Below are positions 2,816 to 51,991 of a DNA stretch of 64,000 nt, one piece after another. Within the stretch, counting starts at the first letter, position 1. Each line of letters opens with the position of its first letter. Source of the DNA: an uncultured Prolixibacteraceae bacterium (GTDB lineage: Bacteria; Bacteroidota; Bacteroidia; Bacteroidales; Prolixibacteraceae); contig CALGIG010000071.1 of the NCBI GenBank assembly GCA_937915865.1, forward strand, positions 41,184 to 105,183, read 5' to 3'. The position numbers and the translations under genes were made by a program. The notes below the pieces were generated by a model. It had not been told where the DNA came from, searched no databases, and saw only the letters and a program-made list of their open reading frames with translations.

Positions 2816-3526
2816 TTAAACCAGTGGTATTTGCATGCCGTCTCTTATTTTCCGGTATATGCATGCTTTACCTGAACAAAGCGTACAAGTATATTCCCGG
2901 TATCTTACACCCTTCCCTATCCCAATTACCCCACTTATCGATTTGACAGGTGTCATCAATGCTGATGCTGTGAGCGACACACCACTCGTACTCCCCTGAA
3001 AAAGGGAAAACAATTTGTGTTGATCCCAAACCGGCCACTGACAATATCCCGGGCTATACCGGTTTGTTATTTTTTCCTGTTTGCTTTCTACCTTCTGTTC
3101 CAAAATAGATTGTAACCGGTCACCTGCCGCTTCTACGATACTGCTGCCTAGCACATCATAGACATAACCGAGCACGGGGTCGTCTCCATGGAGAAGGGTT
3201 TCTGATTTCTGACTGATCACGCTGCCTGCCGTACAAATAAAAAATGCCAGCCGTTCTGACCCACGCATTTCCTTGCACAATGTTTTTCCCACTTCAAACA
3301 CCTCATCATTGATCAGTATTTTATTCTCCTTTTCCAAAATCACAGGATCATCCATAACCCGGTAGCATCCCCGGATATCAGCCAGACATTTAGCTTCTGT
3401 TAACGCCTCTTCCAGATAATAATTAAACGGCGGCGGTAGTTGCCCGCTGGTATATCCTAATATCGATTCAATTTTTTTGTAATCGATTACCAGTTCATCA
3501 AATTTGAAATTAAATTCCCTTATCAT
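2816..3526 (-). CDS. Methionine-synthase (MetH) activation-domain-like protein with a C-terminal Cys cluster.
   Basis: 236 aa. The core NRYSPGYCQWPVWDQHKLFSLF is typical of the B12-dependent methionine synthase activation region family. The C-terminus carries CTLCSGKACIYR. Its start overlaps the COG0523 gene stop (3523-3526). Confidence 0.7.
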   Translation of the reverse strand: MIREFNFKFDELVIDYKKIESILGYTSGQLPPPFNYYLEEALTEAKCLADIRGCYRVMDDPVILEKENKILINDEVFEVGKTLCKEMRGSERLAFFICTAGSVISQKSETLLHGDDPVLGYVYDVLGSSIVEAAGDRLQSILEQKVESKQEKITNRYSPGYCQWPVWDQHKLFSLFQGSTSGVSLTASALMTPVKSISGVIGIGKGVRYREYTCTLCSGKACIYRKIRDGMQIPLV

Positions 3527-4425
3527 GGATTACAATAGCTTTCAAATAGTTCCAAATAGTTTTTTTCTTCAGACTTGCCTATCCCAACCAGTTCTGTGAC
3601 TCCCGGGAACCAATCTACCTGATCAACCGTGACATAATCAAAACTCCCCTGGACTGCCATTTTTCTGTTTCCCGTTATATTCACATAACCTTTGCACCGA
3701 ATGAAACTGTCTTTTATTGAATCGATAAAATCCACTAATCGTTCAAGATTTATTAACCGGCTGCTTTTTATTACGACCGATTGCAAATCAGGCCTGCAAC
3801 TTTCCGTATTTTCCATTTCCGGTAAATATTTGAAAGCTTGTTTCTCCCCTGTAAAGCTGATCCGGGCAAATGAACCTGTCTCTATCCTGGCATATGGATT
3901 GAGCTTCTTAACTGAGTTTGTAACTGATACAACCTGCCCCCTGGCTGCTAAATCATACTTGTTAATAATTACAGTGTCTGCTATGCGTAACTGGTGCTCC
4001 AGGCGCGAACGCAGAAAAGCCAGTTTGTCAAAGTTCCGGGCATCGACAACAGTCCAGCAATGTCCCAGGTAAACTTTGTCCCTGAGCTTGCCGGACTGAA
4101 AGATCTGACCCAGACTGACGGGGTCCGACATACCGGAGGCCTCCATGATGACCTCGTCAGGTGAACTGTCTGTGACAAAAGCTGCCAGTGAATCGATAAA
4201 ACTACCCAGCAAACAAACACAAAAGACCGAACCGTTATTGATCTCCAGCAACCGGTAGGTTCCCTCATGGCTGCGAATAATTTTACCATCCATTCCCGCG
4301 GAAGAAAACTCGTTCTGAATCACCCCGATCTTTCGACCTTTGGAAAAGGTATCCAGGTAATGCATCAGAAAAGTAGTCTTTCCACTTCCTAAAAATCCGG
4401 TAATCAAATGCAGCGGAATACTCAT
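3523..4425 (-). CDS. COG0523/CobW-family G3E GTPase (metallochaperone-like).
   Basis: 300 aa. Has the P-loop GFLGSGKTTF. The usual CxCC motif is degenerate here (CVCLL). Confidence 0.85.
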   Translation of the reverse strand: MSIPLHLITGFLGSGKTTFLMHYLDTFSKGRKIGVIQNEFSSAGMDGKIIRSHEGTYRLLEINNGSVFCVCLLGSFIDSLAAFVTDSSPDEVIMEASGMSDPVSLGQIFQSGKLRDKVYLGHCWTVVDARNFDKLAFLRSRLEHQLRIADTVIINKYDLAARGQVVSVTNSVKKLNPYARIETGSFARISFTGEKQAFKYLPEMENTESCRPDLQSVVIKSSRLINLERLVDFIDSIKDSFIRCKGYVNITGNRKMAVQGSFDYVTVDQVDWFPGVTELVGIGKSEEKNYLELFESYCNP

Positions 4426-4478: not shown

Positions 4479-5831
4479 TCAATTCAATGTCATAGCCTTT
4501 TCAATGGCTTTCTCCAGTTCCCTGCGTTGGGGAATCTGGCTGATAAAAGAGATTTGACCGTTGATACAGGTCGTAGGAACATTCTGAACACCCAATGCTT
4601 TCATCATCCGGATACCATCGATGTCTTTTATCTTGTGCTCGTTTACTATGACTTTATCACCGAATGCTGTTGAAGCTTGTTTAACTGCTTCCACCATATA
4701 CTGACAGGGGGCGCAGGAGCCTGAATCCAGGGTAATGATATCAACGACTACTTTGCCTTTCTTCCAATGTGTATCAAGATTCAGGGGTTGAAGCGACGAA
4801 CTGTGTTTCATCTCCCGTGCTACCTGCTGAAGATATTCATCATATACCAGATCCGTTACTGCCTGAAGATTCTCTACCGGGGTATCCATAGGCAAATCGC
4901 ATCCGGGGGCCAATATAAATCCCTTATTACCTCCTGAATCAAGACAACTTACCGCCTCTTTTTTGGAATCCTGCTCGTCGCCCAGCAACAGCACACTGGT
5001 CAGCTTAAGATTGCCGCCAAAGCTGATCCTCTTTGAAAGAGCAATCTGCTTCACGTAATCAAGCGGAATATTTTCGTCAATTGATATGTTGTCCGGGCGA
5101 CAATCACACATCACCCCGATATTTTGCTGGGCATGTCCGCATACAAAAAATGAACTGTATTTTCCGGAGGATCGAACATAGTTGAATATCTGCCGTGCAT
5201 AAGGACTGACAAAAATCTCGAAAGACTGCGGATCAATCTGGCTGGTCATCGGATCAACCACTGCAATTACATCGCAACCTGCATCCAGAAGCATCCTGCT
5301 GTATTTAACGCCCACCTGTGTGCAAAATTCCATCACCTCCAGCACATAATCCGGCTCTTCAAACATTTTCATAAAAATATCGGTCCCTAACAGGTGGAGC
5401 GCAAGGGTGAACGGTCCGGTAATTAACCCGTATAAGGCCAGGTCAGGGAATTTCTTTCGCAACTTTTCCGCTGCATCCAAAACAACCGGGAAGCGGCCAT
5501 CTGTTTTCCGGGGCAATCTCAACGAGTTCAGTTCTACTCCTTCCGAAAGCGGGTGTGAGACCACTGCCGGGGGATTTTCCTTACTCCAGACCAGTTTACA
5601 TCCCAATATCTCGGCCTCAACCTGCAGGTCGAAGATAACCGGAATTCCGTCCGGCCGGTACAGTTCTACCGCCTTACTGACCCCTTCAACAATGAGTTGG
5701 GTTGATTTTAAATACAATTCAGCATCTGCCCCGATCAGCTTTCCGCCATGCACCCCGACAAAAGGCACCCACGGGGTACGTTCAGTTTCTTCTAACCTAA
5801 ACGCTTTCATTATAATCGACAATCCGTTCAT
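4479..5831 (-). CDS. URO-D-family (MtaA/CmuA-like) methyltransferase fused to a C-terminal thioredoxin-like CxxC domain.
   Basis: 450 aa. The N-terminal ~340 aa align by eye with the four other URO-D paralogs (ILAPGCDLPMDTP). The C-terminal ~90 aa carry CAPC and a ...VPTTCINGQ... thioredoxin/glutaredoxin-like layout. Confidence 0.8.
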   Translation of the reverse strand: MNGLSIIMKAFRLEETERTPWVPFVGVHGGKLIGADAELYLKSTQLIVEGVSKAVELYRPDGIPVIFDLQVEAEILGCKLVWSKENPPAVVSHPLSEGVELNSLRLPRKTDGRFPVVLDAAEKLRKKFPDLALYGLITGPFTLALHLLGTDIFMKMFEEPDYVLEVMEFCTQVGVKYSRMLLDAGCDVIAVVDPMTSQIDPQSFEIFVSPYARQIFNYVRSSGKYSSFFVCGHAQQNIGVMCDCRPDNISIDENIPLDYVKQIALSKRISFGGNLKLTSVLLLGDEQDSKKEAVSCLDSGGNKGFILAPGCDLPMDTPVENLQAVTDLVYDEYLQQVAREMKHSSSLQPLNLDTHWKKGKVVVDIITLDSGSCAPCQYMVEAVKQASTAFGDKVIVNEHKIKDIDGIRMMKALGVQNVPTTCINGQISFISQIPQRRELEKAIEKAMTLN

Positions 5832-5834
5832 CTT

Positions 5835-6506
5835 TTACGCTACTTTACTGTTTAAGAATTCCACAACGCCCTGCGGGTCCGAAGAATAAGCATCCGCACC
5901 TATCTTTTTACAAAAGTCTTCGTTTACCGGAGCGCCTCCAATGGCAACCAAGGTTCCCGGAACAGCCTCTTTGATCTCTTTGGTGATTTTTTCCATGTTG
6001 ACCATCGTGGTTGTCAGCAAGGCAGACAATCCAACTACCGCATCCGGATTTTCCCTGACTGCCGTGATAAACTTTTCGGAATTCACGTCTGTACCCAGGT
6101 CTATAACTTTATACCCATTGCCTTCCACCATCATCGCTACCAGGTTTTTACCTATGTCGTGAAGGTCTCCCATAACTGTACCTATAATGAAGGTCCCTTT
6201 TTGTTTGGCCGCTCCCGAGGCAAAATATGGTTTCAGGTGGATCATTGCTGCATTCATCGCTTTTGCTGACATTAACACCTGCGGTACAAATACCTGGTTG
6301 GCCCGAAACTTAAGACCGATTCGTTCCATTCCCGGCATCAATCCTGAAGTCAGGATTTCCTGCGCTTCTACTCCTGCATCCAGCAACTGGCGGGTCAGCT
6401 CATCTGCACCTAACTCTCCCTTCATTTGCGGCGGGTACGGCGATGACTGGTTTATCTTGCCAAACTCTACATACTCTGATAATTTTTGTAATAATTCGTG
6501 CTTCAT
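5835..6506 (-). CDS. Corrinoid (cobalamin-binding) protein, MtaC/MtbC-like.
   Basis: Has the DxHxxG motif (GDLHDIGKN), SALLTTT and IGGAP. I chose the start at the internal ATG 6506 (MKHELLQKLSEYVEFGK) because it aligns with the N-terminus of the paralog at 48269. The ORF track extends to 6563. Confidence 0.9.
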   Translation of the reverse strand: MKHELLQKLSEYVEFGKINQSSPYPPQMKGELGADELTRQLLDAGVEAQEILTSGLMPGMERIGLKFRANQVFVPQVLMSAKAMNAAMIHLKPYFASGAAKQKGTFIIGTVMGDLHDIGKNLVAMMVEGNGYKVIDLGTDVNSEKFITAVRENPDAVVGLSALLTTTMVNMEKITKEIKEAVPGTLVAIGGAPVNEDFCKKIGADAYSSDPQGVVEFLNSKVA

Positions 6507-6682
6507 GATTGTTGTTTTTTTATTTTTATTTTTTGTTGGTTGATAGCCTATCCTTGTTTTCAATCATAGATAAATACATCCCATTGATAAGAAAAGAATT
6601 CCCACAAAAACAGTAGCAGTTGTTTTGAGGAGTATGATCTTTAAATTTAATTGATGGCATTATATCCGATATTAACCCATTT

Positions 6683-7699
6683 TCAGAACTTTACCAAAAT
6701 TTTTAAGATTTCGCCTGTATTTTGAGACCAGTCCCGCATCGCATCCGGTGCATCCTCCGGTTCTACAATTTTGGAGATCAAAATACGCTCATCGAGTTGA
6801 CTGTTCTTCAGATATTTGATTACAGATTCAAAATCAGAAGGATTGGCGTTTCGCGAGCCCATAATTTCCAGTTCTTTTTGCACCCAGAGTTTGGTTGGAA
6901 AAAGGACTTCGTCTTTTGCATAGCCAATACAAACAACTCTTCCACAAAAAGCGACCTCGTCAATTGCAGCTTTATAAGTTACTGGGCTTCCTGCTGCTTC
7001 AATCACTACTGACGGGCCATTGCCGTTTGTCAGCTTCTCAAGCTTCTCATGAAGCTTTTCAAGTTTTGAATTGATAACGTGGTGTGCACCCAGCTTTTTT
7101 GCAGTTTCCAGCTTTGCTTTATCAATATCGACTGCGATCACCGTAGCTCCGCGCAAACTTGCCCTGACAATGGCTCCGCTCCCGATCATGCCGCAACCAA
7201 AAACCAGAACCGTATCCAGATCAGTTACTTTTCCATTATCCACAGCGTGAAAGCCAACCGTCATCGGCTCAACCAGAACCAACTGAAACGCTGAAAGGTC
7301 ATCGTCAACCAAAACCTTTTGCCACGGAACAGCAATGTATTCTGACATTGCCCCATCTCTCTGTACACCAAGAGTCTGGTTATAGCGACAGGCATTAAAC
7401 TTTTTTTGCCGACACGAAGAGCACTGCCCGCAATTAGTGTACGGAACAACCGTTGCCTTTTGGCCGATTCTATAATGACCCGGAACATCATTCCCAACTT
7501 TTTCTATCACTGCTGAAATTTCATGCCCCGGAACCCTGGGGTACTGGACCAGCGGATTTTTACCCAGGTAGGTGCTCAAATCCGAACCGCAAAATCCGAC
7601 ATAAACGATTCTCAACAACACATCCTCTTTTCCCGGGTTGGGCAGTTCCCTGTCAACCAAACTCATCTCTCCCGGTTCTCTTATTTCTATTGCTTTCAT
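6683..7699 (-). CDS. Zn-dependent medium-chain alcohol/polyol dehydrogenase.
   Basis: 338 aa. Contains GFCGSDL and PGHEISAV zinc-ADH signatures and a GxGxxG fold region (VFGCGMIGSG). Confidence 0.85.
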   Translation of the reverse strand: MKAIEIREPGEMSLVDRELPNPGKEDVLLRIVYVGFCGSDLSTYLGKNPLVQYPRVPGHEISAVIEKVGNDVPGHYRIGQKATVVPYTNCGQCSSCRQKKFNACRYNQTLGVQRDGAMSEYIAVPWQKVLVDDDLSAFQLVLVEPMTVGFHAVDNGKVTDLDTVLVFGCGMIGSGAIVRASLRGATVIAVDIDKAKLETAKKLGAHHVINSKLEKLHEKLEKLTNGNGPSVVIEAAGSPVTYKAAIDEVAFCGRVVCIGYAKDEVLFPTKLWVQKELEIMGSRNANPSDFESVIKYLKNSQLDERILISKIVEPEDAPDAMRDWSQNTGEILKILVKF

Positions 7700-7734
7700 T
7701 GTTCCCTCGTGCTAAATTTTTGTTTCCCGATATT

Positions 7735-8562
7735 TTATAGATTGTAAACCCGGATAGCATTCCTTCCAAAGATTTGTTCCTGCTCAAAAGCGCTAAGCCC
7801 GGATATGTTTTTTTTGACCAGATTCAACCATTCAATGTACCTGACAGCCACTAAACAGACCGGCCAGTCTGAGCCGAACAGTAATCGTGACGGGCCAAAA
7901 GCCTCCAAAACCACCTCAAAATAAGGCTGAAGCTGTTTTTCTGTCCAGCTTGTGAAATCTCCTTCCGTGACCATTCCACTGATTTTGCAACACACATTTT
8001 CACGCTTTGCAAATTCCTTAATGTTTTTTTCCCACTCGGCTATCTCATTAATCTTTATTTTTGGTTTTGCAATATGGTCCAGCACGAATTGCTGGTTGGG
8101 ATGCCGATCTACAAAGCGAATAGTGTTAAGCAATTGATGCTCGAAAATCAGGATGTCATACGCTAAACTGTAATTTTTTAGCAAGGATATTCCGCGGTTA
8201 AATTGCTCACCTAAAATAAACTCTGGATCAGGCTCTCCCTGAATAACATGACGAACTGCTTTTAGCCACGTGTTTTGACTATATCGATCCAGTATTTCCC
8301 GAATATTTTCATTGGCAAGCGGGACCCACCCGACAACTCCTTTGATAAATTCATTTTCTGATGCCAGTTTCAGAAGCCAATCCGTTTCTTCTACTATTTG
8401 ACGCGCCTGCACAGAAACCACTCCTCCAACCTCTGTCCCGGCAATCGTTTCCTGCAGATCACGGGGTAAAAAACTCCGCCGGATGGAAGCCATGTCGTCA
8501 TCAATCCAGTCAAAATCAACCGGATTGTAATTCCAAAAATGATGGTGCGTATCGATAATCAT
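7735..8562 (-). CDS. Amidohydrolase_2-family hydrolase, sugar-lactonase-like (L-fucono/rhamnono-lactonase type).
   Basis: 275 aa. The [11 protein letters not shown]-terminus is typical of the COG3618 lactonase group. Its neighbours are a mutarotase and a sugar dehydrogenase. Confidence 0.7.
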
Positions 8563-8574
8563 AGGCTTACGGTT

Positions 8575-9651
8575 TTATAAATACGGATATTCAGAATCGA
8601 TAATCCCATTCTTTTTCAACTCATCCCAAAATGCGGTTGGCAACTCATTGGCAATAACCCACTGGTTATGCGCCATTCTTTTAGGTTTGCTTGGGTTTAA
8701 AGCCACAGCATTCACCTGAGGGGCAGAAAGCGCAAACTTCAGACAGGCATGGCCCGGCTCAACTTTGTATTTTTCACAAACGGAAAAAAATTTTTCCCTC
8801 CATTCAAAAAGATGTTTGTCATCCGGGTGATCCGGGTCAGTTTTCCGGTAATCGAAATACTCGCCGCCCGTGATAAAACCGGCATTAAAAATGGCCGAAT
8901 TGATAATGCCTACTCCATCCTGATTTAATTGGTCCATAAATTCCAGAATGGTTTTCGGATGATGATAAAGCGTGAATTTATTGGCAAACATGACCCAGTC
9001 AAATTTAACGTGCTGATACAACTCTTTGATCACCAGCCAATCTTTCGAGCCGATGCCCACACCTTTTACTTCGCCCTTTTCTTTTAACTCAAACAATGCC
9101 TGGTAAGCGCCGAGAATATCATTCATTCGCGAAACCCGTTCTTCCTGGTTCAATGAAGCAGCTAAATATTCGTCCGGATCGTGCACTGAAACTAAATCAG
9201 GCTTGAATTTTCCACCAAGCAACTCACAGCCTTGTTCCCAACACTCCAGAATCCCGTCATAACTGATTTTCTGAACGGCATCATATTTTAAGTTTGCCCA
9301 GGCTCCGGGTTCAAAAGTTGGCTCCTTAGTCACAAGCGGCACCCGGAACCATCCAAGTTTATTGCTGATGGTAATTTGCCCGGGCTCAATCCCCAGTTTT
9401 TCCAACCCCCGTCCGATCACCTCCAGGGCAAGACCGGCTCCATATTTTCCTGCACTGTCAATCAGTACATGCCCGTCGCTTACCTTAAACCATTCAGCCA
9501 TCAAGGCCAGTTTTTCATTCTCTGAAAGTTCGCGGTACAAATTGCCAAGGAAGCTGGTCCCGTAAATTACTGGGGGACAGGAAATGCCCGTTTTGCCGAG
9601 GAAGCGGCTCCTTTTCCTGCTAACGCTCTTTTTGTTGCCCTTCGTTTGCAT
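8575..9651 (-). CDS. Aldo/keto reductase, aldose 1-dehydrogenase-like.
   Basis: 358 aa. Has the AKR N-terminal pattern RFLGKTG...YGTSFLG. It overlaps the mutarotase stop by 32 nt. Confidence 0.75.
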   Translation of the reverse strand: MQTKGNKKSVSRKRSRFLGKTGISCPPVIYGTSFLGNLYRELSENEKLALMAEWFKVSDGHVLIDSAGKYGAGLALEVIGRGLEKLGIEPGQITISNKLGWFRVPLVTKEPTFEPGAWANLKYDAVQKISYDGILECWEQGCELLGGKFKPDLVSVHDPDEYLAASLNQEERVSRMNDILGAYQALFELKEKGEVKGVGIGSKDWLVIKELYQHVKFDWVMFANKFTLYHHPKTILEFMDQLNQDGVGIINSAIFNAGFITGGEYFDYRKTDPDHPDDKHLFEWREKFFSVCEKYKVEPGHACLKFALSAPQVNAVALNPSKPKRMAHNQWVIANELPTAFWDELKKNGIIDSEYPYL

Positions 9652-10009
9652 CGAACACCTCCTTTTGATCCAATTCGTAAATACGTTCCATTAACTGCCA
9701 CTTCTCCTTTGCATTCGCGTCTTTGGTGGTTACCTGGAAACGCGACACAAATGACTCCCATTCGCTTTGCCGCGGTTTGGCTGCAAGCTCCTTCATAGCC
9801 TGGTCATGATCAAAGTCCGCCACCGTATCCATGATCATAAATAATCGATTCCCATGAATATAGATCTCCATATCCAGAATGCCTATTTCTTTCATTCCCC
9901 GGGTAATTTCAGGCCATGCAGCACCTGGGGCATGCACTTTTTTATATGCTTCGATTAGCGCTGGATCGTTCTCAAGCAGAAGCGCTTTACAATATCTTTT
10001 AAATCTCAT
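9620..10009 (-). CDS. L-rhamnose mutarotase (RhaM) family protein (deoxy-sugar mutarotase).
   Basis: I chose the start at ATG 10009 (MRFKRYCKALLLENDPALIEAYKKVHA...WPEI...GILDMEIY). The size and pattern match the RhaM family. Confidence 0.75.
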   Translation of the reverse strand: MRFKRYCKALLLENDPALIEAYKKVHAPGAAWPEITRGMKEIGILDMEIYIHGNRLFMIMDTVADFDHDQAMKELAAKPRQSEWESFVSRFQVTTKDANAKEKWQLMERIYELDQKEVFDANEGQQKER

Positions 10010-10112
10010 TCTTACGAAGTGTTTAATGTGAAACAAACGTGAGACTTGTCAATTCCTAACGTTTGCCTGAAAGGCATGAGCCAAAGAGTATTATTTTTAA
10101 AACAAATAGGGC

Positions 10113-11129: not shown

Positions 11130-11207
11130 GGTGAACCGGTTAAATTAGAATTAATCAATCTTAGTTTGTAAAATTTGGAATAAAGTGCCAAGGTCCAAAG
11201 GACGATT

Positions 11208-12245: not shown

Positions 12246-12273
12246 TGAATTTTAATTATTTACTTTGATATGA

Positions 12274-13305: not shown

Positions 13306-13376
13306 GTCTTTATTTTTTGAAACTTATTTGTTTGAATCATAGTAAAACCATTCAATTATTCTTATTGTCAATCCAC

Positions 13377-14861
13377 CTATAATATCATTTCGCCAACATA
13401 AATATCCTGAAAATTGGGATTGCCTTCCAGGTTGATGTGCGTGGTTTTTCCCAGAATTTCTGTTCTGAGTTGCGAACCGGAAAACAGAAACATCTTAGCC
13501 CCGATCAGTGCCGTATTTCCCATTTTGTGAATTTTTTCCCCTTCGCTTCTTATCATTCCGGTAGCCACCACGTTTTCGATGCTGATGTAATTACCGAACC
13601 CGCCGGCAATGTAAATGGTCTGTATGTCGGCAACCCGTATTGAAAGATAGTTTGCAAGAATGGTCAGTCCTACTGCGATGGCAGCTTTGGCCAGTTGAAA
13701 TTCGTTAATATCCTTTTGAGTCAGGTTTACTTTTCCAGCGATGGAAATTTGCCCCTCACCCGAATTAATTTCGCCGAACATACCTACCCGTTCCAGCTTC
13801 CGTAGGATGGCCACAGCATCGATCAGCGCGCTCCCGCAAATTCCTTTGGGAGAGGCATTCCCGATCACACTGGGCACAATATTCCCGTCAACCAGATTTA
13901 ATGATGAAATTGCCCCGGTAACGGCGCGCATTCCTACCGAAATATTGGCCCCTTCAAATGCCGGGCCGGCCGCCGTCGAAGCACACACAATCCGGTTTTT
14001 GTTACCAACCACAATTTCTCCGTTGGTTCCCAGATCAATTAAAGCGGTATAATCTTCTTTTTGGTGAAGCCCGGTTGCAGCAATACCTGCCAGTATGTCG
14101 CTGCCAACAAAACTTCCAATCGAAGGATAAAAATGCACCTTTTCGATCACCTGAAAGTTCCATCCTAATTCTTGAGGTTCAAAGGTTTTTATTCCCAGGT
14201 TGTTGGTTTGGAACGGGTATGCTGACAGCGGGGTTACATCGCAATCGCTGAAAATAAGTTGCATGGCGGTATTGCCAACCAGGACTACTTTCCGGATGTC
14301 AACCGGGTGTTTTTTCAGCATCAGATTAATCATTGCCCCGATCGATGAGCGAATCATCCGGGTCATTTCGGTTGCCTGCCCGTCCAGGCAAGCCTGAATC
14401 CTGGAAATCAGGTCAGCCCCGAATTTAACCTGCGGGTTCAGCATGGTTTCAACGGCCAGCACTTTTGCCGACGACAAGTCGATCAATTGGGCTACCACCG
14501 TGGTTGTCCCCAGGTCGACCGCAATTCCGAAGCCTTTTTGCGGGTGAAAGTCAAATTCGCTCTCGTCGGCCAGGATCAGGTGGTTGAATTGTTCGATTTC
14601 GAGGGTAATATCGCCGGTACAACGGCTAAAACACGCCAGCCTCCATTCTGGAGAAAGGCCAAGCTGTTCGATCTTCTGCCGGTGGGCATCGGTGATTTTT
14701 ATTTCGCCGTCCAAAAGCCTGACCTTACATTTTCCGCAGGTCCCTTTTCCCCCGCAGGGAAACTCCACGCCATATTCATGCAACACATCAATTAACGGCG
14801 TTTGATCGTTGACTTCCAGTACTTTTCCCAGTGGCAATAAATGGATAATATGTTTTTTCAT
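13377..14861 (-). CDS. RACo-type reductive activator of corrinoid proteins ([2Fe-2S] ferredoxin domain plus ASKHA ATPase).
   Basis: 494 aa. The N-terminus has CGGKGTCGKCKV...LAC. ASKHA motifs are AVDLGTTTV and IDLGTNGEIV. The start overlaps the upstream URO-D gene stop (14858-14861). Confidence 0.85.
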   Translation of the reverse strand: MKKHIIHLLPLGKVLEVNDQTPLIDVLHEYGVEFPCGGKGTCGKCKVRLLDGEIKITDAHRQKIEQLGLSPEWRLACFSRCTGDITLEIEQFNHLILADESEFDFHPQKGFGIAVDLGTTTVVAQLIDLSSAKVLAVETMLNPQVKFGADLISRIQACLDGQATEMTRMIRSSIGAMINLMLKKHPVDIRKVVLVGNTAMQLIFSDCDVTPLSAYPFQTNNLGIKTFEPQELGWNFQVIEKVHFYPSIGSFVGSDILAGIAATGLHQKEDYTALIDLGTNGEIVVGNKNRIVCASTAAGPAFEGANISVGMRAVTGAISSLNLVDGNIVPSVIGNASPKGICGSALIDAVAILRKLERVGMFGEINSGEGQISIAGKVNLTQKDINEFQLAKAAIAVGLTILANYLSIRVADIQTIYIAGGFGNYISIENVVATGMIRSEGEKIHKMGNTALIGAKMFLFSGSQLRTEILGKTTHINLEGNPNFQDIYVGEMIL

Positions 14862-16992: not shown

Positions 16993-17003
16993 GTTGTTTA
17001 TTT

Positions 17004-43962: not shown

Positions 43963-44648
43963 TTTGTACTTCACGAGTTCGGGATTGAGTTTCAATGCGG
44001 GGAAAAGGGACCTGTGGCAAATGTAAAGTCAGAGTTATTTGGGGAGAAATTAAAACAACAGAAAATCACCTTCGGAAGATTGAACAACTGAGCCTGCCAT
44101 TCGACCGGCGACTAGCTCGTTTCAGTCAGTGCACCGTTGATATTACGCTTGAAATTGAGCAGTTTAATCACCTAATCCTGGCCGACGAGAGCGAATTTGA
44201 CTTTCATCCGCAAAAAGGCTTCGGAATTGCGGTCGACCTGGGGACAACCACGGTGGTAGCCCAATTGATCGACTTGTCCTCGTCAAAAGTGCTGGTCTTT
44301 GAAACCATGCTGAACCCGCAGGTTAAATTCGGGGCTGATTTGATTTCGAGGATACAGGCCTGCCTGGATGGACATGCTTCTGAAATGACCCGGATAATCC
44401 GTTTATCAATAGGAACAATGATTGAATTGATGCTGAAAGAACACGAAGTCGGTTTGCAAAAAGTGATCCTTGTTGGCAATACCGCCATGCATCTGATTTT
44501 CTGCAATTGTGACGTTACTCCTCTTTCGATGTACCCTTTTCACGCCAGCAATTTAGGGATGAAAATCTTCGTTCCGGAGGAATTGGGATGGGACTTTCAG
44601 GTTAACGGAACAATACAGTTTTATGGAACGAAGTTATTAAATAAATAA
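43963..44648 (+). pseudogene. Truncated, frameshifted copy of the RACo reductive-activase gene.
   Basis: Homologous to codons ~25-245 of 13377..14861. A G4 run at 43999-44002 replaces the G5 run of the intact gene and shifts the frame inside the CGGKGTCGKC cluster. Homology ends near 44610, and the ASKHA C-terminal half is missing. Confidence 0.85.
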
Positions 44649-44743: not shown

Positions 44744-45610
44744 TCACAACCCTTTAAACCGTTTCCGATATTCTGTTGGAGTAACTCCAGTTATTTTTCT
44801 GAACTGTTTATTGAAATGACTCAAATTGTTAAAACCACTATCGAGGCAAGCATCCAGAATACTCAGGCTCGGGTCCATCAACAGTTTGCAGGCAAATTCC
44901 ACTTTGATCTTGTTCAGGTATTCAAAAATAGTCAATCCCATATTTTGTTTAAAAAAGCGACAGAGCGACCCTTCTGCCATATTGACCATTTCGGACAGCC
45001 TTTCCAAATCAATTTCCTCCCGGTAATTGTTCATTAAATACTCGTGAATAGTTGCTATCCGCTTATTCTGTGAAGAGAATCTCGTGATTAAATATTCTTT
45101 ACTTGCCAAACTGACTAAAGAATCACTCTTCCCGATAATGTCCATCATCTTAAAAAAATGCAGCATTCGCTCAAAGCCTTTTAGATAGGGCATCTGAAGC
45201 ATCAGCTCGCTCACTTCGTTGAGTGTTTGGCCCATAATCTGAATGCCCTGTTCCGATAAGGAAAGGGCTTTCGCAACATGACAAAATTCTGGAAGGGCAA
45301 GCAACTGAGAACACAATACTTTTTCGGTAAACTGAAGGAAGACCATTTCAAGGGTACGGTTTGACCATATTCCTTGTCCCTTATCAGCAATCCACACATG
45401 AGGCAGATTCTTCCCCAGAAATACCAAATCACCTGGCTGAAAATCTTCTATTGAATCGGCAACAATCCGTTTCCCTGAACCTTCGGTAATGAAACTGATT
45501 TCGTAGTTATTGTGATAATGCCATGTACTTTTCTCCAGGTTATCCTGAAAAATCCCAATGAAAAAGGATTCGTCTTCGTTTAAAATGATTTGTTCGAACT
45601 GGGCCGACAT
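44744..45610 (-). CDS. AraC-family transcriptional regulator (cupin-like sensor plus HTH).
   Basis: 288 aa. The C-terminus FNNLSHFNKQFRKITGVTPTEYRK is a canonical AraC HTH. Confidence 0.9.
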   Translation of the reverse strand: MSAQFEQIILNEDESFFIGIFQDNLEKSTWHYHNNYEISFITEGSGKRIVADSIEDFQPGDLVFLGKNLPHVWIADKGQGIWSNRTLEMVFLQFTEKVLCSQLLALPEFCHVAKALSLSEQGIQIMGQTLNEVSELMLQMPYLKGFERMLHFFKMMDIIGKSDSLVSLASKEYLITRFSSQNKRIATIHEYLMNNYREEIDLERLSEMVNMAEGSLCRFFKQNMGLTIFEYLNKIKVEFACKLLMDPSLSILDACLDSGFNNLSHFNKQFRKITGVTPTEYRKRFKGL

Positions 45611-48268: not shown

Positions 48269-48937
48269 ATGGAAGAATTACTCGAAGAACTACTCGAAGC
48301 CGTCGAACTAGGGAAAGTGGATTTGAAATCACCGTTTCCGCCCCAGCTTCGAGGCATGGATGGCGCCCTCGAACTTACAGTAAAAGCGTTGGAGTCCGGT
48401 GTTGGTCCCCAGCAAATACTTGAAAGTGCATTGGTTCCTGCTATGGACCGGGTGGGTAAAAAATTCTCCGAAAACAAGATTTTCGTACCTCAAATGCTCA
48501 TGTCGGCCAAAGCTATGGGCGCTTCGATGACCCAGCTCAAACCATTTTTCACTTCCGGCGAAATTAAAACAAAGGGCACGTTTATTATCGGAACCGTTAA
48601 AGGCGATTTGCACGACATCGGTAAAAACCTGGTAGCCATGATGGTGGAAGGAGCAGGTTGGACAGTTATCGATCTTGGCGTTGATGTTCCTTCGACAAGA
48701 TACCTTGAGGCCCTGAGTAACAACCCGGGAGCAGTTGTGGCTTTATCGGCCCTGCTGACCACCACGATGGTTTATATGGGAGAGATTGTATCCGACATCA
48801 AAGCACAGATTCCTGATGCAAAAGTTTTTATTGGCGGAGCACCGGTTAACAACGATTTCTGTAAAAAGATAGGAGCCGATTTCTACGCTCCAGATCCACA
48901 AGGCGTGGTGGAACACCTGAACAAACTGGCCTCTTAG
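48269..48937 (+). CDS. mtaC: Corrinoid (cobalamin-binding) protein, MtaC-like.
   Basis: 222 aa with GDLHDIGKN (DxHxxG), SALLTTT and IGGAP. It is a paralog of 5835..6506 and lies directly upstream of the MtaB-like gene. Confidence 0.88.
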   Translation: MEELLEELLEAVELGKVDLKSPFPPQLRGMDGALELTVKALESGVGPQQILESALVPAMDRVGKKFSENKIFVPQMLMSAKAMGASMTQLKPFFTSGEIKTKGTFIIGTVKGDLHDIGKNLVAMMVEGAGWTVIDLGVDVPSTRYLEALSNNPGAVVALSALLTTTMVYMGEIVSDIKAQIPDAKVFIGGAPVNNDFCKKIGADFYAPDPQGVVEHLNKLAS

Positions 48938-48989: not shown

Positions 48990-50429
48990 ATGGGGTTGTT
49001 TGCCCAGTGTTATAGCAACAACAAATTTAGTAATACATTAAAAAACAGTAATGTGAAGTATAAAAGTTTAGTAATAACCAATCCTGAAGACCTGATGTTC
49101 GGGATTGCCCCCAATCCGGTAAAGACGAGGCGGGGACTTGAAATCGGGGGCGGACAGGTTTATGCCGAATTGAATTTTACCCTCCCGGTAATGAGTATCA
49201 ATGAAAATACTCTTTCTGAAGTGTACGGCCACTACCGCGAAATTACCGAAGGCGCCCTTGAACGCGCTCTTGAGCTGAACTCGAAAGGTGTTGTCCTGGA
49301 ACTGGAAACGCTGCTTGAAATGACCAAAACTCCAAAGATTGGAATCGGGATTGTTAAGATCATGAATGAGATTTGTGAAGACTATTACCAAAAATATGGC
49401 CTTGCTTCAGAAATCCGCCTGACACCTAACGACCTGCGCGAATTTGAGCGCCCGGCCAAACAACGAACTTCGGCATATTTAGAGCCGATGATGGAACTAT
49501 TTGAGCAAGGGATGATTGAAGGCGGTGACTTACTTTCAATAGAGAGTACCGGCGGAAAAGAAGTTTCGGACGAAGCGTTGATGATGTGTGACGTTAAAGG
49601 AGTTGTTTTTGCTTTGGCCGTTCTTGGAGTGAGGGATATGCAGTTTCTGTGGAAAAAAATCGTATCTCTGGCCATTAAGTATAACAAAATTGCTGCCGGT
49701 GATTCTGCCTGCGGATTTGCCAATACGGCCATGGTCCTGGCCGAAAAAAAATACATTCCGCGGGTATTTGCTGCTTTGGTGCGCGTAATTTCGGTGGTTC
49801 GTTCGATTGTCGCCATGGAAGAAGGCGCCATTGGCCCTGATAAAGATTGCGGTTACGAAGGCCCGTTCCTGAAAGCCATTACCGGAATCCCGATTTCGAT
49901 GGAGGGGAAAACTGCCGCCTGTGCACACCTCAGTCCAATCGGCAATATTGCCTCTGCCTGTTGTGATTTGTGGAGTAATGAATCGGTGCAGAACATTAAA
50001 TTGCTTTCAGGTATGGCCCCGACAGCTTATATGGAGCAACTCGAATACGATGCGCGGCTGATAAATCAGGCTTTAATAGCCGGAACAGTTCCCAGCCATA
50101 TTTTGCAACAATTACTGGTTGCTTCCGATGTTTATACCGACCCGCAGGCGTTGATCCTTTCGCCGGAAAATGTGATTCGTATATCGAAAGAATTGGTAAA
50201 AGGCGATTCGTATGTGGCTAATGCTCGGAATGGCGCTTTGGCAGCCCTGGATATTATTGAAGAGGTTCTCCGGTCAGGGAAAATGAAACTTTCAGAACTG
50301 GAAACCGGTTATCTCCCGATCCTTCGCGATGAATTAAACAGCATTCCCGAAAATGAAAGCGATTTTGTGGAGATGATGATGCCGCTTATCGATCAAAGCA
50401 AATTCATCCCGGCCGAATACGGATTGTAA
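48990..50429 (+). CDS. mtaB: Methanol:corrinoid methyltransferase MtaB-family protein.
   Basis: 479 aa, collinear by eye with methanogen MtaB as I remember it. Shared segments are LLSIESTGGKEV, AAGDSACGFANTAM, GPDKDCGYEG, MEGKTAACAH and CCDLWSNES. The first ~21 codons may be an over-extension, since an in-frame GTG lies at 49053. Confidence 0.8.
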   Translation: MGLFAQCYSNNKFSNTLKNSNVKYKSLVITNPEDLMFGIAPNPVKTRRGLEIGGGQVYAELNFTLPVMSINENTLSEVYGHYREITEGALERALELNSKGVVLELETLLEMTKTPKIGIGIVKIMNEICEDYYQKYGLASEIRLTPNDLREFERPAKQRTSAYLEPMMELFEQGMIEGGDLLSIESTGGKEVSDEALMMCDVKGVVFALAVLGVRDMQFLWKKIVSLAIKYNKIAAGDSACGFANTAMVLAEKKYIPRVFAALVRVISVVRSIVAMEEGAIGPDKDCGYEGPFLKAITGIPISMEGKTAACAHLSPIGNIASACCDLWSNESVQNIKLLSGMAPTAYMEQLEYDARLINQALIAGTVPSHILQQLLVASDVYTDPQALILSPENVIRISKELVKGDSYVANARNGALAALDIIEEVLRSGKMKLSELETGYLPILRDELNSIPENESDFVEMMMPLIDQSKFIPAEYGL

Positions 50430-50480: not shown

Positions 50481-51422
50481 ATGGAAAAAATTCCGGTAAA
50501 TATCATTTCCGGGTTCCTCGGTTCAGGGAAAACTACGGCAATCATACGGCTTTTAGAGCAAAAACGACCAGAGGAATGCTGGGCCATCGTGGTGAACGAA
50601 TTCGGGAAAGTGCCCATCGACGGGCAAACCCTGCAATCCAAATCAGTCACCGGCTCGGTTTTCGATATTTTGGGCGGGTGCATCTGCTGTTCGGCCAAAA
50701 TCTACCTGAAAGAAAACCTTGAAAAGATCGTTGAAACCAAAAAATTTGACCGGATCATCATCGAACCCAGCGGATTGGGTGGTATTGAAATGGTTTCTGA
50801 AATGGTTGGGCTAATCCCGCAACTCAGTTTAATGCCGGTTATTTGCATGGTGGACATTACCGGTACAGACAACCCTAAATTCCGGCGAATTCCGATATGC
50901 AGCGCTCAAATCAGGATGTCGGACAGGATTGTTTTTAGTAAATGCGACCTGCTGGATTCTCCCGGGCAGCAGGATGAACTGGTAACCAGGTTCAAATTGG
51001 CATTTCCCGATAAGCATTCCTGTTTTGTTGGCACAAAAGTGACCATCGCGGTTTTAAACCCACCTGATCCGGAGGAAAAAACGAAAGAACCGAATTCAAA
51101 AACCTATTTTATCCCGGCACATCACCTGACCGACGGGAACTTTAGGGAGCAGGCCTTTCAATTTGAAGCCGACCGGATTTTTGCTCCGGAAGCTTTAAAA
51201 ACTGTTTTTGCCGCAAATCCGTCCATCATCCGGGCCAAAGGACATATCTGTACCACCAGCGGCTGGGTGCTGTTCAACTATACACTGTCGGGGTACCATT
51301 CAGAACCTTGCCCGGAAAAAGAACAAAGTGAGATTATTATTATTGCTGAAAAATCAGGTTCTGACCAGTTCCAAAACCTCGAAGCCGACATTGAGAAATC
51401 AGGTGTTTGGGGTACTTTTTGA
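50481..51422 (+). CDS. COG0523/CobW-family G3E GTPase.
   Basis: I chose the start at ATG 50481 (MEKIPVNIISGFLGSGKTT). It has the canonical GCICC metal motif. It is a paralog of 3523..4425. Confidence 0.85.
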   Translation: MEKIPVNIISGFLGSGKTTAIIRLLEQKRPEECWAIVVNEFGKVPIDGQTLQSKSVTGSVFDILGGCICCSAKIYLKENLEKIVETKKFDRIIIEPSGLGGIEMVSEMVGLIPQLSLMPVICMVDITGTDNPKFRRIPICSAQIRMSDRIVFSKCDLLDSPGQQDELVTRFKLAFPDKHSCFVGTKVTIAVLNPPDPEEKTKEPNSKTYFIPAHHLTDGNFREQAFQFEADRIFAPEALKTVFAANPSIIRAKGHICTTSGWVLFNYTLSGYHSEPCPEKEQSEIIIIAEKSGSDQFQNLEADIEKSGVWGTF

Positions 51423-51445: not shown

Positions 51446-51991
51446 ATGAAAAAACATAACTTACAAATTAACCAACAAAACTTTACGGTACATGCAGACG
51501 GACATCAGTTTGATGTAGGCAAAGCTGTCTGCAAAGAATTAAAGGGGACAGAACGAGCAGCATTTTATGTTTGTACAGCAGGCAAAACTATTAGTGAAGA
51601 ATCTTCCAGGTTACTATACGGCGAAGATCCCATTTTGGGATACATTTTGGATATTATGGGAAGTATGATTACCGAGGCCGCCTGTGATTTGCTTCAGTCT
51701 CGGTTAAAGAAAGAGATGGAATTAACAAATGAGTTATTGACCAATCGATATAGTCCAGGGTACTGTCAATGGCCGGTAGCCGATCAGCATAAGCTATTTT
51801 CATTGTTTCCTGAAAATGTTTGTGGAATATCGCTGTCGGATTCGGCCCTGATGTCTCCCCTGAAATCAGTAAGTGGCATTATTGGAATTGGAGAAAAGGT
51901 AAAATTCAGGAAGCATGTTTGCACGCTCTGTTCAAGTAAAGATTGCATTTATCGTAGAATCAAGAAGGATATAAAAAAACTTAAATATTAA
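51446..51991 (+). CDS. MetH activation-domain-like protein with a C-terminal Cys cluster (shorter paralog).
   Basis: I chose the start at ATG 51446. It has NRYSPGYCQWPVADQHKLFSLF and CTLCSSKDCIYR. It lacks the ~55 N-terminal residues present in the 2816..3526 product. Confidence 0.7.
   Translation: MKKHNLQINQQNFTVHADGHQFDVGKAVCKELKGTERAAFYVCTAGKTISEESSRLLYGEDPILGYILDIMGSMITEAACDLLQSRLKKEMELTNELLTNRYSPGYCQWPVADQHKLFSLFPENVCGISLSDSALMSPLKSVSGIIGIGEKVKFRKHVCTLCSSKDCIYRRIKKDIKKLKY

Follow-up and report, generated by a model that had tools for sequence, protein, structure and literature searches.

We favour, with moderate confidence, a reading in which two helper proteins encoded together in corrinoid operons serve different clients: a stand-alone protein related to the activation domain of MetH (hereafter ACT) would act on the corrinoid protein, and a COG0523 GTPase on the methyltransferase. 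The window, i.e. the whole stretch of 64,000 nucleotides that was analysed, carries two loci with the same gene set, namely a corrinoid protein, a methyltransferase (a URO-D–thioredoxin fusion or MtaB), a COG0523 GTPase and ACT. Corrinoid methyltransferase systems stall upon oxidation of their cobalt and, to our knowledge, the repair routes described are two: the ATP-driven activators RACo/RamA, and flavodoxin plus AdoMet acting on the fused domain of MetH.

In the explanation proposed here, ACT would correspond to the AdoMet-binding domain that reactivates cobalamin-dependent methionine synthase, encoded as a protein of its own. Oxidation of the neighbouring stand-alone corrinoid protein leaves its cobalt as inactive Co(II); ACT would then dock on this protein and, with AdoMet, capture the cobalt during its transient reduction as methyl-Co(III) by reductive methylation, as TM0269 of Thermotoga maritima does in trans for the enzyme of that organism; homology and synteny both point to these steps. 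More tentatively, a [4Fe-4S] cluster held by the cysteine site of ACT might feed the electron, replacing flavodoxin or ferredoxin or acting downstream of them. The GTPase would be an accessory of the methyltransferase of the same operon and not the partner of ACT, GTPases with an SVFCVCLL motif being paired with the URO-D–thioredoxin fusion and those with a canonical CxCC with MtaB. Family analogy and co-occurrence suggest that, with GTP, it would most likely insert or maintain the catalytic metal (Zn) of the methyltransferase. In locus 1, the ACT route and the ATP-dependent RACo route would coexist.

Gene content and integrity of the two loci

Locus 1 is intact and the RACo gene belongs to the extended cluster of this locus (Table 1). 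The 4-nt stop/start overlap that a sequence-only reading of this DNA had reported for the minus-strand pair at 2816-4425 is confirmed, bases 3523-3526 being common to both ORFs. The URO-D–thioredoxin fusion matches the URO-D profile of Pfam (4.4e-61) and Thioredoxin_3, as well as MtaA (PDB 4ay7, 6e-31), and its FVCGH, APGCD and CAPC motifs are kept in 22-23 of 23 orthologs. The ATG at 6506 is likely the true start of corrinoid protein 1; in a related locus (L001), the gene call for this region is 223 aa long.

Table 1. Features of the two corrinoid loci and their surroundings in the window
Feature	Coordinates	Strand	Size, evidence or state
Locus 1			
ACT1, stand-alone MetH activation-domain protein	2816..3526	-	236 aa; Pfam PF02965
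G3E_1, COG0523 GTPase of the SVFCVCLL subfamily	3523..4425	-	300 aa; cobW 2.4e-37 + CobW_C
MtaA-like URO-D methyltransferase fused to Thioredoxin_3 (CAPC)	4479..5831	-	450 aa
Corrinoid protein 1, B12-binding_2 + B12-binding	5835..6563	-	Pfam, NCBIfam
RACo-type reductive activator, intact, Fer2 + RACo middle + ASKHA	13377..14861	-	494 aa; Pfam
Locus 2			
RACo fragment, N-terminal region + middle domain only	43995..44648	+	Pfam Raco_middle only
AraC-family regulator	44744..45610	-	Pfam; 76% identity to L012 AraC
Two IS transposase genes	45831-47012, 47144-48232	+	ORFs
Corrinoid protein 2	48269..48937	+	Pfam; 92% identity to L012 ortholog
MtaB-type methanol:corrinoid methyltransferase	48990..50429	+	Pfam MtaB 7.8e-160
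G3E_2, COG0523 GTPase with canonical GCICC	50481..51422	+	Pfam; 64% identity to L012 ortholog
ACT2, 5'-truncated ACT	51446..51991	+	181 aa; without ~55 N-terminal residues

Locus 2 is orthologous to a separate operon type, represented by locus L012, and derives by damage from a corrinoid protein–URO-D–MtaB–GTPase–RACo–ACT operon: two IS elements have inserted, URO-D and RACo have been lost, and ACT is without its first ~55 codons. The IS transposase genes, which correspond to genes matching Pfam DDE_Tnp_1 in another locus (L091) and are missing from the L012 arrangement, now separate the AraC/promoter region from corrinoid protein 2; in intact relatives, the AraC regulator is divergent from this type of operon. 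The RACo gene next to locus 2 had been described as decayed and is indeed a fragment, with a blastn match to the 5' part of the L012 RACo. MtaB matches PDB 2i2x (5.5e-89), and the segments that we take to carry its Zn ligands are conserved between the two proteins. The 23-nt gap given earlier for the plus-strand pair at 50481-51991 holds with the ACT2 ATG at 51446; the alternative starts of the ORF track are a TTG at 50442 for G3E_2 and position 51407 for ACT2. In its closest full-length homologs, ACT2 matches residues ~60-235 (70% identity), and its deletion junction could be mapped by comparison with L012. The domain is incomplete (strands 2-7, 51-59 and helices 16-22, 34-45 of the model are gone) and, devoid of its N-terminal quarter, ACT2 is probably non-functional.

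ACT1 and ACT2 share 59% identity over 156 aa (E = 4e-74) and the two corrinoid proteins 64%, versus 27% for G3E_1 and G3E_2 (E = 2e-15), a discrepancy on which a recent duplication of one module was rejected. The GTPases come from different operon lineages and the two copies therefore do not result from recent duplication.

RACo and ACT are found together in the window cluster as well as in loci L009, L011 and L012. The suggestion that the gene pair acts instead of RACo is thus unlikely for locus 1, whose own gene cluster includes an intact RACo gene, and ACT was also rejected as a RACo substitute in operons of the locus-2 type, since their intact relatives (L012) carry both genes. Should RACo already restore Co(I), a need for ACT as well would be hard to account for, a point that counts against the explanation preferred here.

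The activation-domain protein, its probable client and its cysteine site

Both ACT1 (33.3 bits) and ACT2 (34.4 bits) exceed the gathering cutoff of 25 for the PF02965 (Met_synt_B12) profile. The nearest solved structure to ACT1 is TM0269 (PDB 1j6r; E = 5.8e-7, profile E = 1.3e-18). In Foldseek searches, the AF2 model of ACT1 (pLDDT 93.7) matches 1j6r with an E value of 4.5e-12, a TM score of 0.89 and an rmsd of 2.1 Å, and the next 18 matches are all MetH activation domains. The RxxxGY motif for AdoMet corresponds in ACT1 to R156-Y-S-P-G160-Y161, R156 being found in 138, G160 in all and Y161 in 143 of the 152 representatives of the ACT family. The RxSPGY segment aligns with the RxxxGY (R..PGY) segment of human MetH, and LTeSsLMsPvkSvSG with LTESLAMAPASAVSG of the same protein. 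Neither ACT nor the GTPase matches any RACo family of Pfam, including ASKHA PF14574. Both sequence signatures that had been proposed as common to the two proteins were recovered, the first one as RYSPGYCQWP in ACT1 and ACT2, the C-terminal cysteine motif as CTLCSGKACIYR in ACT1 and CTLCSSKDCIYR in ACT2.

Gene neighbourhoods were compared for the best-scoring 80 of at least 582 ACT loci, taken from species-level genomes; almost all of these 80 loci belong to Bacteroidota and the counts are phylogenetically non-independent. In 76 of these best 80 of at least 582 loci, ACT is immediately preceded, in the same orientation, by a corrinoid-methyltransferase gene, i.e. a gene for a GTPase (26 loci), MTHFR (25), Hcy S-methyltransferase (15) or, more rarely, a pterin-binding methyltransferase (5), a corrinoid protein (3), RACo (1) or URO-D (1). 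The synteny with corrinoid proteins expected from the window recurs in other genomes, a corrinoid protein gene being located at most 6.5 kb upstream of ACT in 60 of the best 80 of at least 582 loci. Some operons are arranged as corrinoid protein–pterin-binding methyltransferase–MTHFR–ACT, others as corrinoid protein–Hcy S-methyltransferase–ACT; judged from their gene content, these operons are MetH taken apart. In Clostridia, Cys-tailed relatives of ACT are found in MTHFR–ACT–MetH operons, in which MetH has four domains and is devoid of the activation domain. TM0269 is needed in trans for the reactivation of MetH, according to Huang 2007, and GapMind annotates BT0249 of Bacteroides thetaiotaomicron as the separately encoded reactivation part of the MetH of Bacteroides. 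Taken with the homology, this gene order suggests that ACT probably repairs the neighbouring corrinoid protein.

It is very improbable that ACT would be a catalytic AdoMet:corrinoid methyltransferase, transferring methyl groups from AdoMet to the corrinoid protein in the ordinary course of the pathway, or a regulatory AdoMet sensor, rather than a repair factor. Indeed, although the chemistry would be identical to reductive methylation and ACT ends operons in which an obvious methyl-donor enzyme is sometimes missing (corrinoid protein–Hcy S-methyltransferase–ACT), in these very operons AdoMet would be spent to make methionine in a futile cycle, other operons already include a methyl-donor methyltransferase (MtaB, URO-D, or a pterin-binding methyltransferase with MTHFR), and the characterised homologs act in repair only.

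The family-level associations of ACT and of the GTPase are both previously known or annotated, whereas neither the Cys tail of ACT nor the recruitment of this protein to methylotrophic operons appears to have been described in the searchable literature. The literature searched contained no report of corrinoid-dependent sugar demethylation in PULs and no description of a Cys-tailed or Fe-S-containing reactivation subunit, absences that are no proof of novelty.

The cysteines of ACT pointed out from the window are conserved among homologs: 149 of the 152 representatives, down to 33% identity, have C162, C214, C217 and C222. C162 directly follows the Tyr of the AdoMet motif, and the three others form a C-terminal CX2CX4C. 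A C-terminal CX2CX4-5C also occurs in 54 of 119 TM0269-like relatives, and the relatives from Clostridia keep the three cysteines of the tail without C162 but with about seven further conserved cysteines. TM0269 itself, the one stand-alone protein of this kind that has been characterised, is devoid of the Cys site, so that the basic reaction can proceed without it. The site would most likely bind a [4Fe-4S] cluster, a less secure assignment that draws on the spacing of the cysteines and on analogy with ThiC, in which a CX2CX4C at the C-terminus coordinates a [4Fe-4S] cluster adjacent to AdoMet (PMC4389238). Two other ideas about the site were discarded: the CX2CX4CX16C of CFeSP, considered as a second [4Fe-4S] precedent, was unconfirmed by literature search and was dropped as evidence, and maturation of the site by the GTPase was rejected because the same site is present in 53 loci without GTPase (best 80 of at least 582).

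Alternatively, ACT would be a reactivation subunit whose cysteines form a structural Zn knuckle pinning the tail over the AdoMet site, electrons being supplied by a separate flavodoxin, ferredoxin or RACo. Four cysteines are the commonest set of Zn ligands, and the short tail is poorly ordered in the metal-free AF2 model of ACT1 (pLDDT 61-71), in which Zn and Fe-S are not distinguishable. Furthermore, the same cluster encodes a RACo with its own [2Fe-2S] domain, and MetH itself uses an external flavodoxin as reductant. We nevertheless regard this knuckle as less likely: a CX2CX4C and a distant fourth Cys are the usual pattern of Fe-S sites, with ThiC as precedent, and not of CxxC...CxxC Zn ribbons, the three tail cysteines and about seven additional ones of the clostridial relatives look like cluster chemistry, and the hosts, judged by their taxon labels, are apparently anaerobes or facultative anaerobes.

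The stand-alone MetH-type domain with its conserved Cys site is thus the terminal gene of many corrinoid operons of Bacteroidota, and a Cys-rich relative accompanies a truncated MetH in Clostridia. If the Cys site holds an Fe-S cluster, ACT would provide a compact and testable third repair route that would also matter for the B12-dependent synthesis of methionine by gut anaerobes. A bolder version of the explanation preferred here, which we put forward as possible and tentative, is that Cys-tailed ACT proteins constitute a third, self-contained class of corrinoid activators with their own [4Fe-4S] cluster and that the SVFCVCLL GTPase is a maturation factor of the URO-D–thioredoxin fusion. If true, one small protein would supply both the electron and the methyl group. 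The class would be widespread in anaerobes, with a [4Fe-4S] cluster beside the AdoMet site (C162 being added in Bacteroidota), and would serve split MetH as well as methanol- and methyl-ether-type corrinoid proteins that were formerly thought to depend on RACo/RamA, and the SVFCVCLL GTPase would have a non-canonical metal site.

The GTPases and their probable partner

G3E_1 from locus 1 carries the motif SVFCVCLL and G3E_2 from locus 2 the motif GGCICCS. Both GCICC and CVCLL had been correctly spotted in the sequence-only reading, but its description of the latter as degenerate does not stand, as CVCLL is part of a conserved subfamily signature: NGSVFCVCLL is found in 110 of 120 G3E_1 homologs (at least 52% identity). 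Decay was rejected given this fixation and the intact GTPase motifs, i.e. Walker A G10-T17, E95/S97/G98 and N155-K156-x-D158 in G3E_1, all conserved at 95% or more. Those of G3E_2 are GFLGSGKT, EPSG and SKCD, and both proteins match CobW_C (PF07683) above cutoff. The best fold matches of G3E_1 in Foldseek are YjiA structures (4ixm, 1nij; E ~1e-15, best 3e-15). The GCxCC metal motif is present in G3E_2, whereas G3E_1 has GSVFCVC instead and, when the two are aligned pairwise, retains only the last Cys of CxCC. With two of the three CxCC cysteines missing from the SVFCVCLL subfamily, it is doubtful that G3E_1 handles Zn in the manner of YjiA/ZigA.

The GTPase and ACT had been taken for a single two-gene module. 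Such a module is not obligate: a GTPase gene is present in 27 of the best 80 of at least 582 ACT loci and ACT is found without it in the 53 others. Among these best 80 of at least 582 loci, those with a GTPase comprise 23 with the long URO-D–thioredoxin fusion, two with a URO-D gene cut at an edge, one with MtaB and one devoid of URO-D (L040), in which the GTPase gene has decayed and is split into two ORFs; the GTPase thus accompanies the fusion in 25 of 25 loci, and none of the 53 loci without GTPase encodes the long fusion. GTPase presence thus follows the URO-D–thioredoxin fusion or MtaB, not ACT or the corrinoid protein. The idea of a module dedicated to the corrinoid protein therefore survives in part: fold, motifs and synteny of ACT fit AdoMet-dependent reactivation, but the GTPase appears tied to the methyltransferase.

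The same data bear on the hypothesis, in our view unlikely, that GTPase and ACT form one two-protein machine for maturation or reactivation of the corrinoid protein, either by GTP-driven insertion of cobalt or cobamide or by GTP-gated access combined with AdoMet-dependent repair, in the manner of the MeaB-type G-protein chaperones of B12 enzymes. When both genes are present they are always adjacent, in the order GTPase–ACT, and the stop codon of the GTPase gene runs into the start of ACT in 25 of 26 loci, 17 times as ATGA (best 80 of at least 582), an arrangement that would also fit a physical pairing of the two proteins. In the window, ACT is paired with two very different GTPase subfamilies (27% identity), and G3E GTPases include chaperones of B12 enzymes, MMAA being among the distant fold matches of G3E_1. 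However, ACT is tightly coupled to any other preceding gene too, the junctions of Hcy S-methyltransferase and of URO-D with ACT being likewise tight. ACTs with the same Cys site do without any GTPase in 53 of the best 80 of at least 582 loci, and identity to ACT1 is alike for GTPase-partnered (48-59%) and unpartnered (56-57%) ACTs. The gene that predicts the GTPase is URO-D–thioredoxin or MtaB, not that of the corrinoid protein or ACT. Methanogens with mtaABC are not known to have a PF02965 protein. In methanogens, COG0523 genes cluster with mtaABC (Haas 2009, PMC2770081).

The link of the GTPase with the methyltransferase, which is the one preferred here, agrees with the description of a COG0523 subfamily linked to mtaA/mtaB/mtaC/ramM, MtaA and MtaB being Zn enzymes (Haas 2009, PMC2770081). 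Against a role as Zn supplier, Hcy S-methyltransferase is a Zn enzyme too, yet no GTPase is encoded in the operons that combine it with a corrinoid protein and ACT. The association of GTPase subfamilies with either the URO-D–thioredoxin fusion or MtaB would replace the vague notion of COG0523 near corrinoid genes by a specific hypothesis and would offer, as a hypothesis, a concrete client for an orphan metallochaperone family.

Comparison with known systems

TM0269 (1j6r) and BT0249 resemble ACT in Pfam family, fold, RxxxGY motif and size (~200-236 aa) and, like ACT, have a gene separate from that of the B12-binding module and are presumed to work in trans. However, TM0269 has PGYG and no C-terminal Cys tail, whereas ACT has both PGYC and the tail, and the client of TM0269 is a four-domain MetH, whereas those of ACT would be the free-standing corrinoid proteins of MtaB/MtaA-like methyltransferase operons. 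The C-terminal activation domain of MetH (E. coli, human; 1msk, 2o2k, 9ss*) shares the AdoMet-binding fold and motifs of ACT and the chemistry proposed for it, reductive methylation of Co(II). It differs in being ~100 residues larger, covalently fused and reduced by flavodoxin or MTRR, and in having no Cys4 site, the residue after GY being Pro in human MetH. RACo and RamA share with ACT the proposed client, a Co(II) corrinoid protein, and the genomic niche, but are unrelated in fold (ASKHA ATPase plus ferredoxin domain) and driven by ATP instead of AdoMet methylation. ThiC, a non-canonical radical SAM enzyme, is AdoMet-using and displays an identical, C-terminal Cys spacing; its fold and chemistry are unrelated to those of ACT, in which a fourth Cys could close the cluster in Bacteroidota, so that the likeness is an analogy of motifs.

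The COG0523 "subfamily 13" (Haas 2009, PMC2770081) is, like the GTPases of the window, encoded in corrinoid methyltransferase operons beside Zn-dependent methyltransferases, a likeness based on gene context and not on tree placement; G3E_2 resembles it (CxCC, beside MtaB), whereas G3E_1 differs by GSxFCxC in place of GCxCC. YjiA, ZigA and CobW are the best sequence and fold matches of G3E_1 and share Walker A, ExSG, NKxD and CobW_C with it, but the scores of G3E_1 are all far below the equivalog cutoffs, and this protein lacks two CxCC cysteines and has its own conserved C69, C71, H144 and C298. Finally, the type 1 mlp clusters (Kountz & Balskus, PMC10418091) are mostly from Firmicutes, in a paper that is silent on COG0523, PF02965 and Bacteroidota; with several MtaA-like URO-D paralogs, one corrinoid protein, RACE/RACo and no folate methyltransferase in the cluster, they resemble the region 4479-17034 of the window.

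The two corrinoid loci and their surroundings

As the sequence-only reading had described, both corrinoid loci of the window carry a COG0523 GTPase gene next to a gene encoding a stand-alone MetH activation-domain protein (hereafter ACT), a description borne out by the ORF map and domain scans (see table). The two ORFs have four bases in common at locus 1. ACT1 and ACT2, from loci 1 and 2 respectively, display 59% identity over 156 residues (E = 4e-74), and both carry the motifs already noted, RYSPGYCQWP and CTLCSxKxCIYR. The two corrinoid proteins are 64% identical; the GTPases G3E_1 and G3E_2 share only 27% identity, the first carrying SVFCVCLL and the second GGCICCS.

Features of the two corrinoid loci (window positions)
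Feature	Position	Strand	Basis
ACT1, Met_synt_B12 (PF02965), locus 1	2816-3526	minus	domain scan
G3E_1, COG0523 GTPase, locus 1	3523-4425	minus	domain scan
MtaA-like URO-D methyltransferase fused to Thioredoxin_3, locus 1	4479-5831	minus	domain scan
Corrinoid protein, locus 1	5835-6563	minus	ORF map, domain scan
Four short URO-D methyltransferase paralogs	10113-11129, 11208-12245, 14858-15880, 15973-17034	minus	Pfam
Intact RACo	13377-14861	minus	Pfam
MFS sugar transporter, RhaT, AKR, Amidohydro_2, Zn-ADH	within 6683-32721	minus	Pfam
GH97, beta-helix protein, GHL6/fucosidase-like hydrolase, PhyH	within 6683-32721	minus	Pfam
Putative SusD-like, 598 aa	25723-27519	minus	size and position only
Putative SusC-like, 1137 aa	27543-30956	minus	size and position only
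FecR anti-sigma	31086-32090	minus	Pfam
Putative ECF sigma, 186 aa	32161-32721	minus	size and position only
Corrinoid protein, locus 2	48269-48937	plus	ORF map, domain scan
MtaB, locus 2	48990-50429	plus	domain scan
G3E_2, COG0523 GTPase, locus 2	50442 or 50481-51422	plus	domain scan
ACT2, locus 2	51407 or 51446-51991	plus	domain scan

Locus 1 is intact and is the terminal part of a long minus-strand cluster in which glycoside hydrolases and SusC/D-sized ORFs accompany sugar transporters and a sugar-acid pathway. As this cluster carries an intact gene for RACo, the ATP-dependent reductive activator of corrinoid proteins, RACo and ACT coexist there, and the earlier suggestion that the gene pair might act instead of RACo is unlikely for locus 1. 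A polysaccharide-utilisation-type cluster (6683-32721) thus ends in the corrinoid locus. The cluster looks like a candidate for the anaerobic, corrinoid-dependent removal of methyl groups from O-methylated sugars, a system for which no describing paper was found in the literature searched.

An intact relative of locus 2 from another genome, L012, carries a divergent AraC gene and an operon encoding a corrinoid protein, URO-D, MtaB, GTPase, RACo and ACT. Locus 2 derives from such an operon but is damaged: relative to L012, it has two IS elements separating the AraC/promoter region from the corrinoid protein gene, it has lost URO-D as well as RACo from its operon position, and the first ~185 nt of the ACT gene are gone. 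The decayed RACo gene previously reported for this locus was recovered as a 5' fragment at 43966-44648. The alignment of ACT2 with its closest full-length homologs is confined to residues ~60-235; roughly a quarter of the fold is missing, and the protein is probably inactive. Further assemblies from this project show the arrangement again. G3E_2 and its L012 ortholog share only 64% identity (50442-51422 versus L012:5646-6557), the corrinoid protein and MtaB beside it are 92-94% identical to their counterparts, and a mid-gene segment (50948-51107) has no DNA match in L012; this divergence points to relaxed selection or else to a recombination boundary within the operon.

Mobile-element genes adjoin both loci (1199-2050, 52379-54094 and 56354-63603), with RteC just downstream of ACT1, and a large serine recombinase and CTnDOT-type tra genes (TraJ, TraL, TraM, DUF4138) downstream of ACT2. 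In L012, a TraG/YWFCY coupling protein follows the operon. The corrinoid operons may travel as conjugative-transposon cargo.

Identity and genomic neighbourhood of ACT

The sole solved structure retrieved by sequence search with ACT was 1j6r, i.e. TM0269, a stand-alone activation protein from Thermotoga maritima (profile E = 1.3e-18). An AlphaFold model of ACT built from 41 family members (pLDDT 93.7) superimposes on 1j6r with a TM of 0.89, and the next 18 fold matches are all MetH activation domains. Both the AdoMet motif RxxxGY (R156-Y-S-P-G-Y161 in ACT1) and the LTESxxMxPxxSVSG strand align with the corresponding segments of human MetH. The family comprises 4194 clusters (50% identity) at E ≤ 1e-3 and 269 at E ≤ 1e-30.

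That stand-alone PF02965 proteins are MetH reactivation subunits is already known from literature and annotation. TM0269 is needed in trans for MetH reactivation (Huang et al. 2007), and in GapMind BT0249 is annotated as the reactivation portion of a split Bacteroides MetH. The window ACTs are paralogs of this Bacteroides subunit that have been recruited into operons of MtaA-like and MtaB type. Given these two precedents, homology and synteny, the best-supported function of ACT would be the AdoMet-dependent reactivation of Co(II) corrinoid.

Scanning one genome per GTDB species by pattern plus tblastn yielded at least 582 relatives of ACT, of which the best 80 loci, nearly all from Bacteroidota, were retained; as this is a top-scoring subset, its counts lack phylogenetic independence. 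A simple script called the ORFs, which were classified against window and locus references, unknown neighbours being assigned by Pfam. Immediately upstream of ACT, on the same strand, lies a gene for a COG0523 GTPase in 26 of these best 80 loci, an MTHFR in 25, an Hcy S-methyltransferase (PF02574) in 15, a pterin-binding methyltransferase in five, a corrinoid protein in three, and RACo and URO-D in one each, i.e. one of these seven types in 76/80. The proposed synteny with corrinoid proteins extends to other genomes, one being encoded ≤6.5 kb away in 60 of the best 80.

Several operons recur: (i) corrinoid protein, pterin-binding methyltransferase, MTHFR and ACT; (ii) Hcy S-methyltransferase and ACT, with an optional corrinoid protein; (iii) a divergent AraC, then corrinoid protein, URO-D–thioredoxin fusion, Hcy S-methyltransferase, GTPase and ACT; and (iv) the locus-1 type, with corrinoid protein, URO-D–thioredoxin, GTPase and ACT, also present in Gaoshiqia and Sunxiuqinia. 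The first two are MetH disassembled into single-domain proteins. The first was seen in Bacteroidales loci L045, L049, L052, L061, L072 and 13 more; its MTHFR has an N-terminal DUF5981 domain, and it often adjoins MFS_2 transporters, GH10 or arabinofuranosidase genes. Together with the Hcy S-methyltransferase–ACT pairs encoded elsewhere, it makes up a single-domain split methionine synthase. Globally, terminal ACT genes occur in Bacteroidota operons of MtaA-like, MtaB, pterin-binding methyltransferase/MTHFR and Hcy S-methyltransferase kinds, sometimes also with RACo; no description of ACT as the last gene of Bacteroidota corrinoid operons was found in the literature searched.

The GTPase and its probable client

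The GTPase and ACT had been proposed to form a pair. They are indeed adjacent in the window, but the pairing is not obligate, as 53 of the best 80 of at least 582 ACT loci lack the GTPase; a GTPase neighbour makes no difference to how similar an ACT is to ACT1. Among these best 80, a long URO-D–thioredoxin fusion (447-553 aa) accompanies 23 of the 27 loci with a GTPase and none of the 53 without; the remaining GTPase loci have a URO-D cut by the contig end (two), MtaB (one) or no such methyltransferase (one, L040), and those without have MtaB (one), only a short URO-D (two) or none (50). The fusion alone predicts the SVFCVCLL GTPase (25/25 versus 0/53 in the same subset). In L040, the only GTPase locus without URO-D, the gene (9094-9998) is broken into ORFs of 174 and 132 aa, which could reflect a frameshift/pseudogene or a sequencing error. 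No description of the strict link between the SVFCVCLL subfamily and the fusion was found in the literature searched.

CVCLL, previously considered degenerate, is a conserved metal-motif variant rather than decay: NGSVFCVCLL occurs in 110/120 homologs of the tight G3E_1 subfamily, where C69, C71, H144 and C298 are conserved and Walker A, ExSG and NKxD are intact. Of the CxCC cysteines, G3E_1 keeps only the last (pairwise alignment), and its model has YjiA as closest fold match. The MtaB-linked GTPases (window locus 2, L012) retain GCICC. The window MtaB conserves segments that we take to bear the Zn ligands of 2i2x. In the fusion, FVCGH, APGCD and one CAPC are conserved in 22-23 of 23 orthologs.

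The association of COG0523 proteins with corrinoid methyltransferases is already known, a subfamily co-localising with mtaA, mtaB, mtaC and ramM having been described, and MtaA and MtaB being Zn enzymes (Haas et al. 2009). This association, the co-occurrence and the conserved metal-site residues suggest that the GTPase serves the methyltransferase, most probably in GTP-dependent metal insertion. Against this assignment, the stop codon of the GTPase gene overlaps the start of ACT in 25/26 loci (best 80 of at least 582), the altered G3E_1 motif is hard to square with standard Zn handling, and corrinoid protein–Hcy S-methyltransferase–ACT operons lack a GTPase.

MtaA-like URO-Ds with one or two Thioredoxin_3 domains and a single conserved CAPC were observed at 4479-5831 and in loci L009-L047, L089 and L090; in the fusion, the MtaA-type HxC Zn motif is supplanted by an invariant FVCGH. 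GTPases including that at 3523-4425 weakly match the CobW-related selenoprotein NF041053, and the thioredoxin-like domain of 4479-5831 weakly matches the HUIPC thioredoxin-like selenoprotein NF047660, matches that may tie in with the methyl-selenide/sulfur hypothesis for MtaA-like gene clusters.

The Cys site of ACT

The Cys cluster pointed out in the sequence-only reading is real: C162, C214, C217 and C222 are each present in 149/152 ACTs (the 150 best representatives and the two window copies), with identities to ACT1 as low as 33%, and are therefore a family signature. W164, Q169 and P193 are invariant beside them. C162 immediately follows the AdoMet-motif Tyr, and the other three form a C-terminal CX2CX4C, in a tail that the AlphaFold model renders with a pLDDT of only 61-71. 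The literature searched yielded no description of such a site in stand-alone activation proteins from anaerobes.

A search seeded with the TM0269 segment found Thermotoga proteins devoid of all these Cys, and the same C-terminal CX2CX4-5C in 54/119 more distant relatives, where PGYG replaces PGYC and about seven further Cys are conserved. The two of these examined lie in MTHFR–ACT–MetH operons whose four-domain MetH (805-808 aa) lacks the activation domain. Clostridia-type contigs (L094-L098) encode stand-alone MetH activation subunits with about ten conserved Cys, including the C-terminal CX2CX4-5C; TM0269, the sole characterised stand-alone protein, has none of them.

As TM0269 lacks the site, the site is dispensable for the basic reaction. 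The Cys-rich Clostridial relatives suggest cluster chemistry, and an in-built Fe-S cluster through which electrons enter is the favoured reading, with a roughly even chance of being correct; the main alternative is a structural Zn site. The Fe-S reading draws on the likeness to ThiC, in which C-terminal Cys of identical spacing bind a [4Fe-4S] cluster beside AdoMet (PMC4389238).
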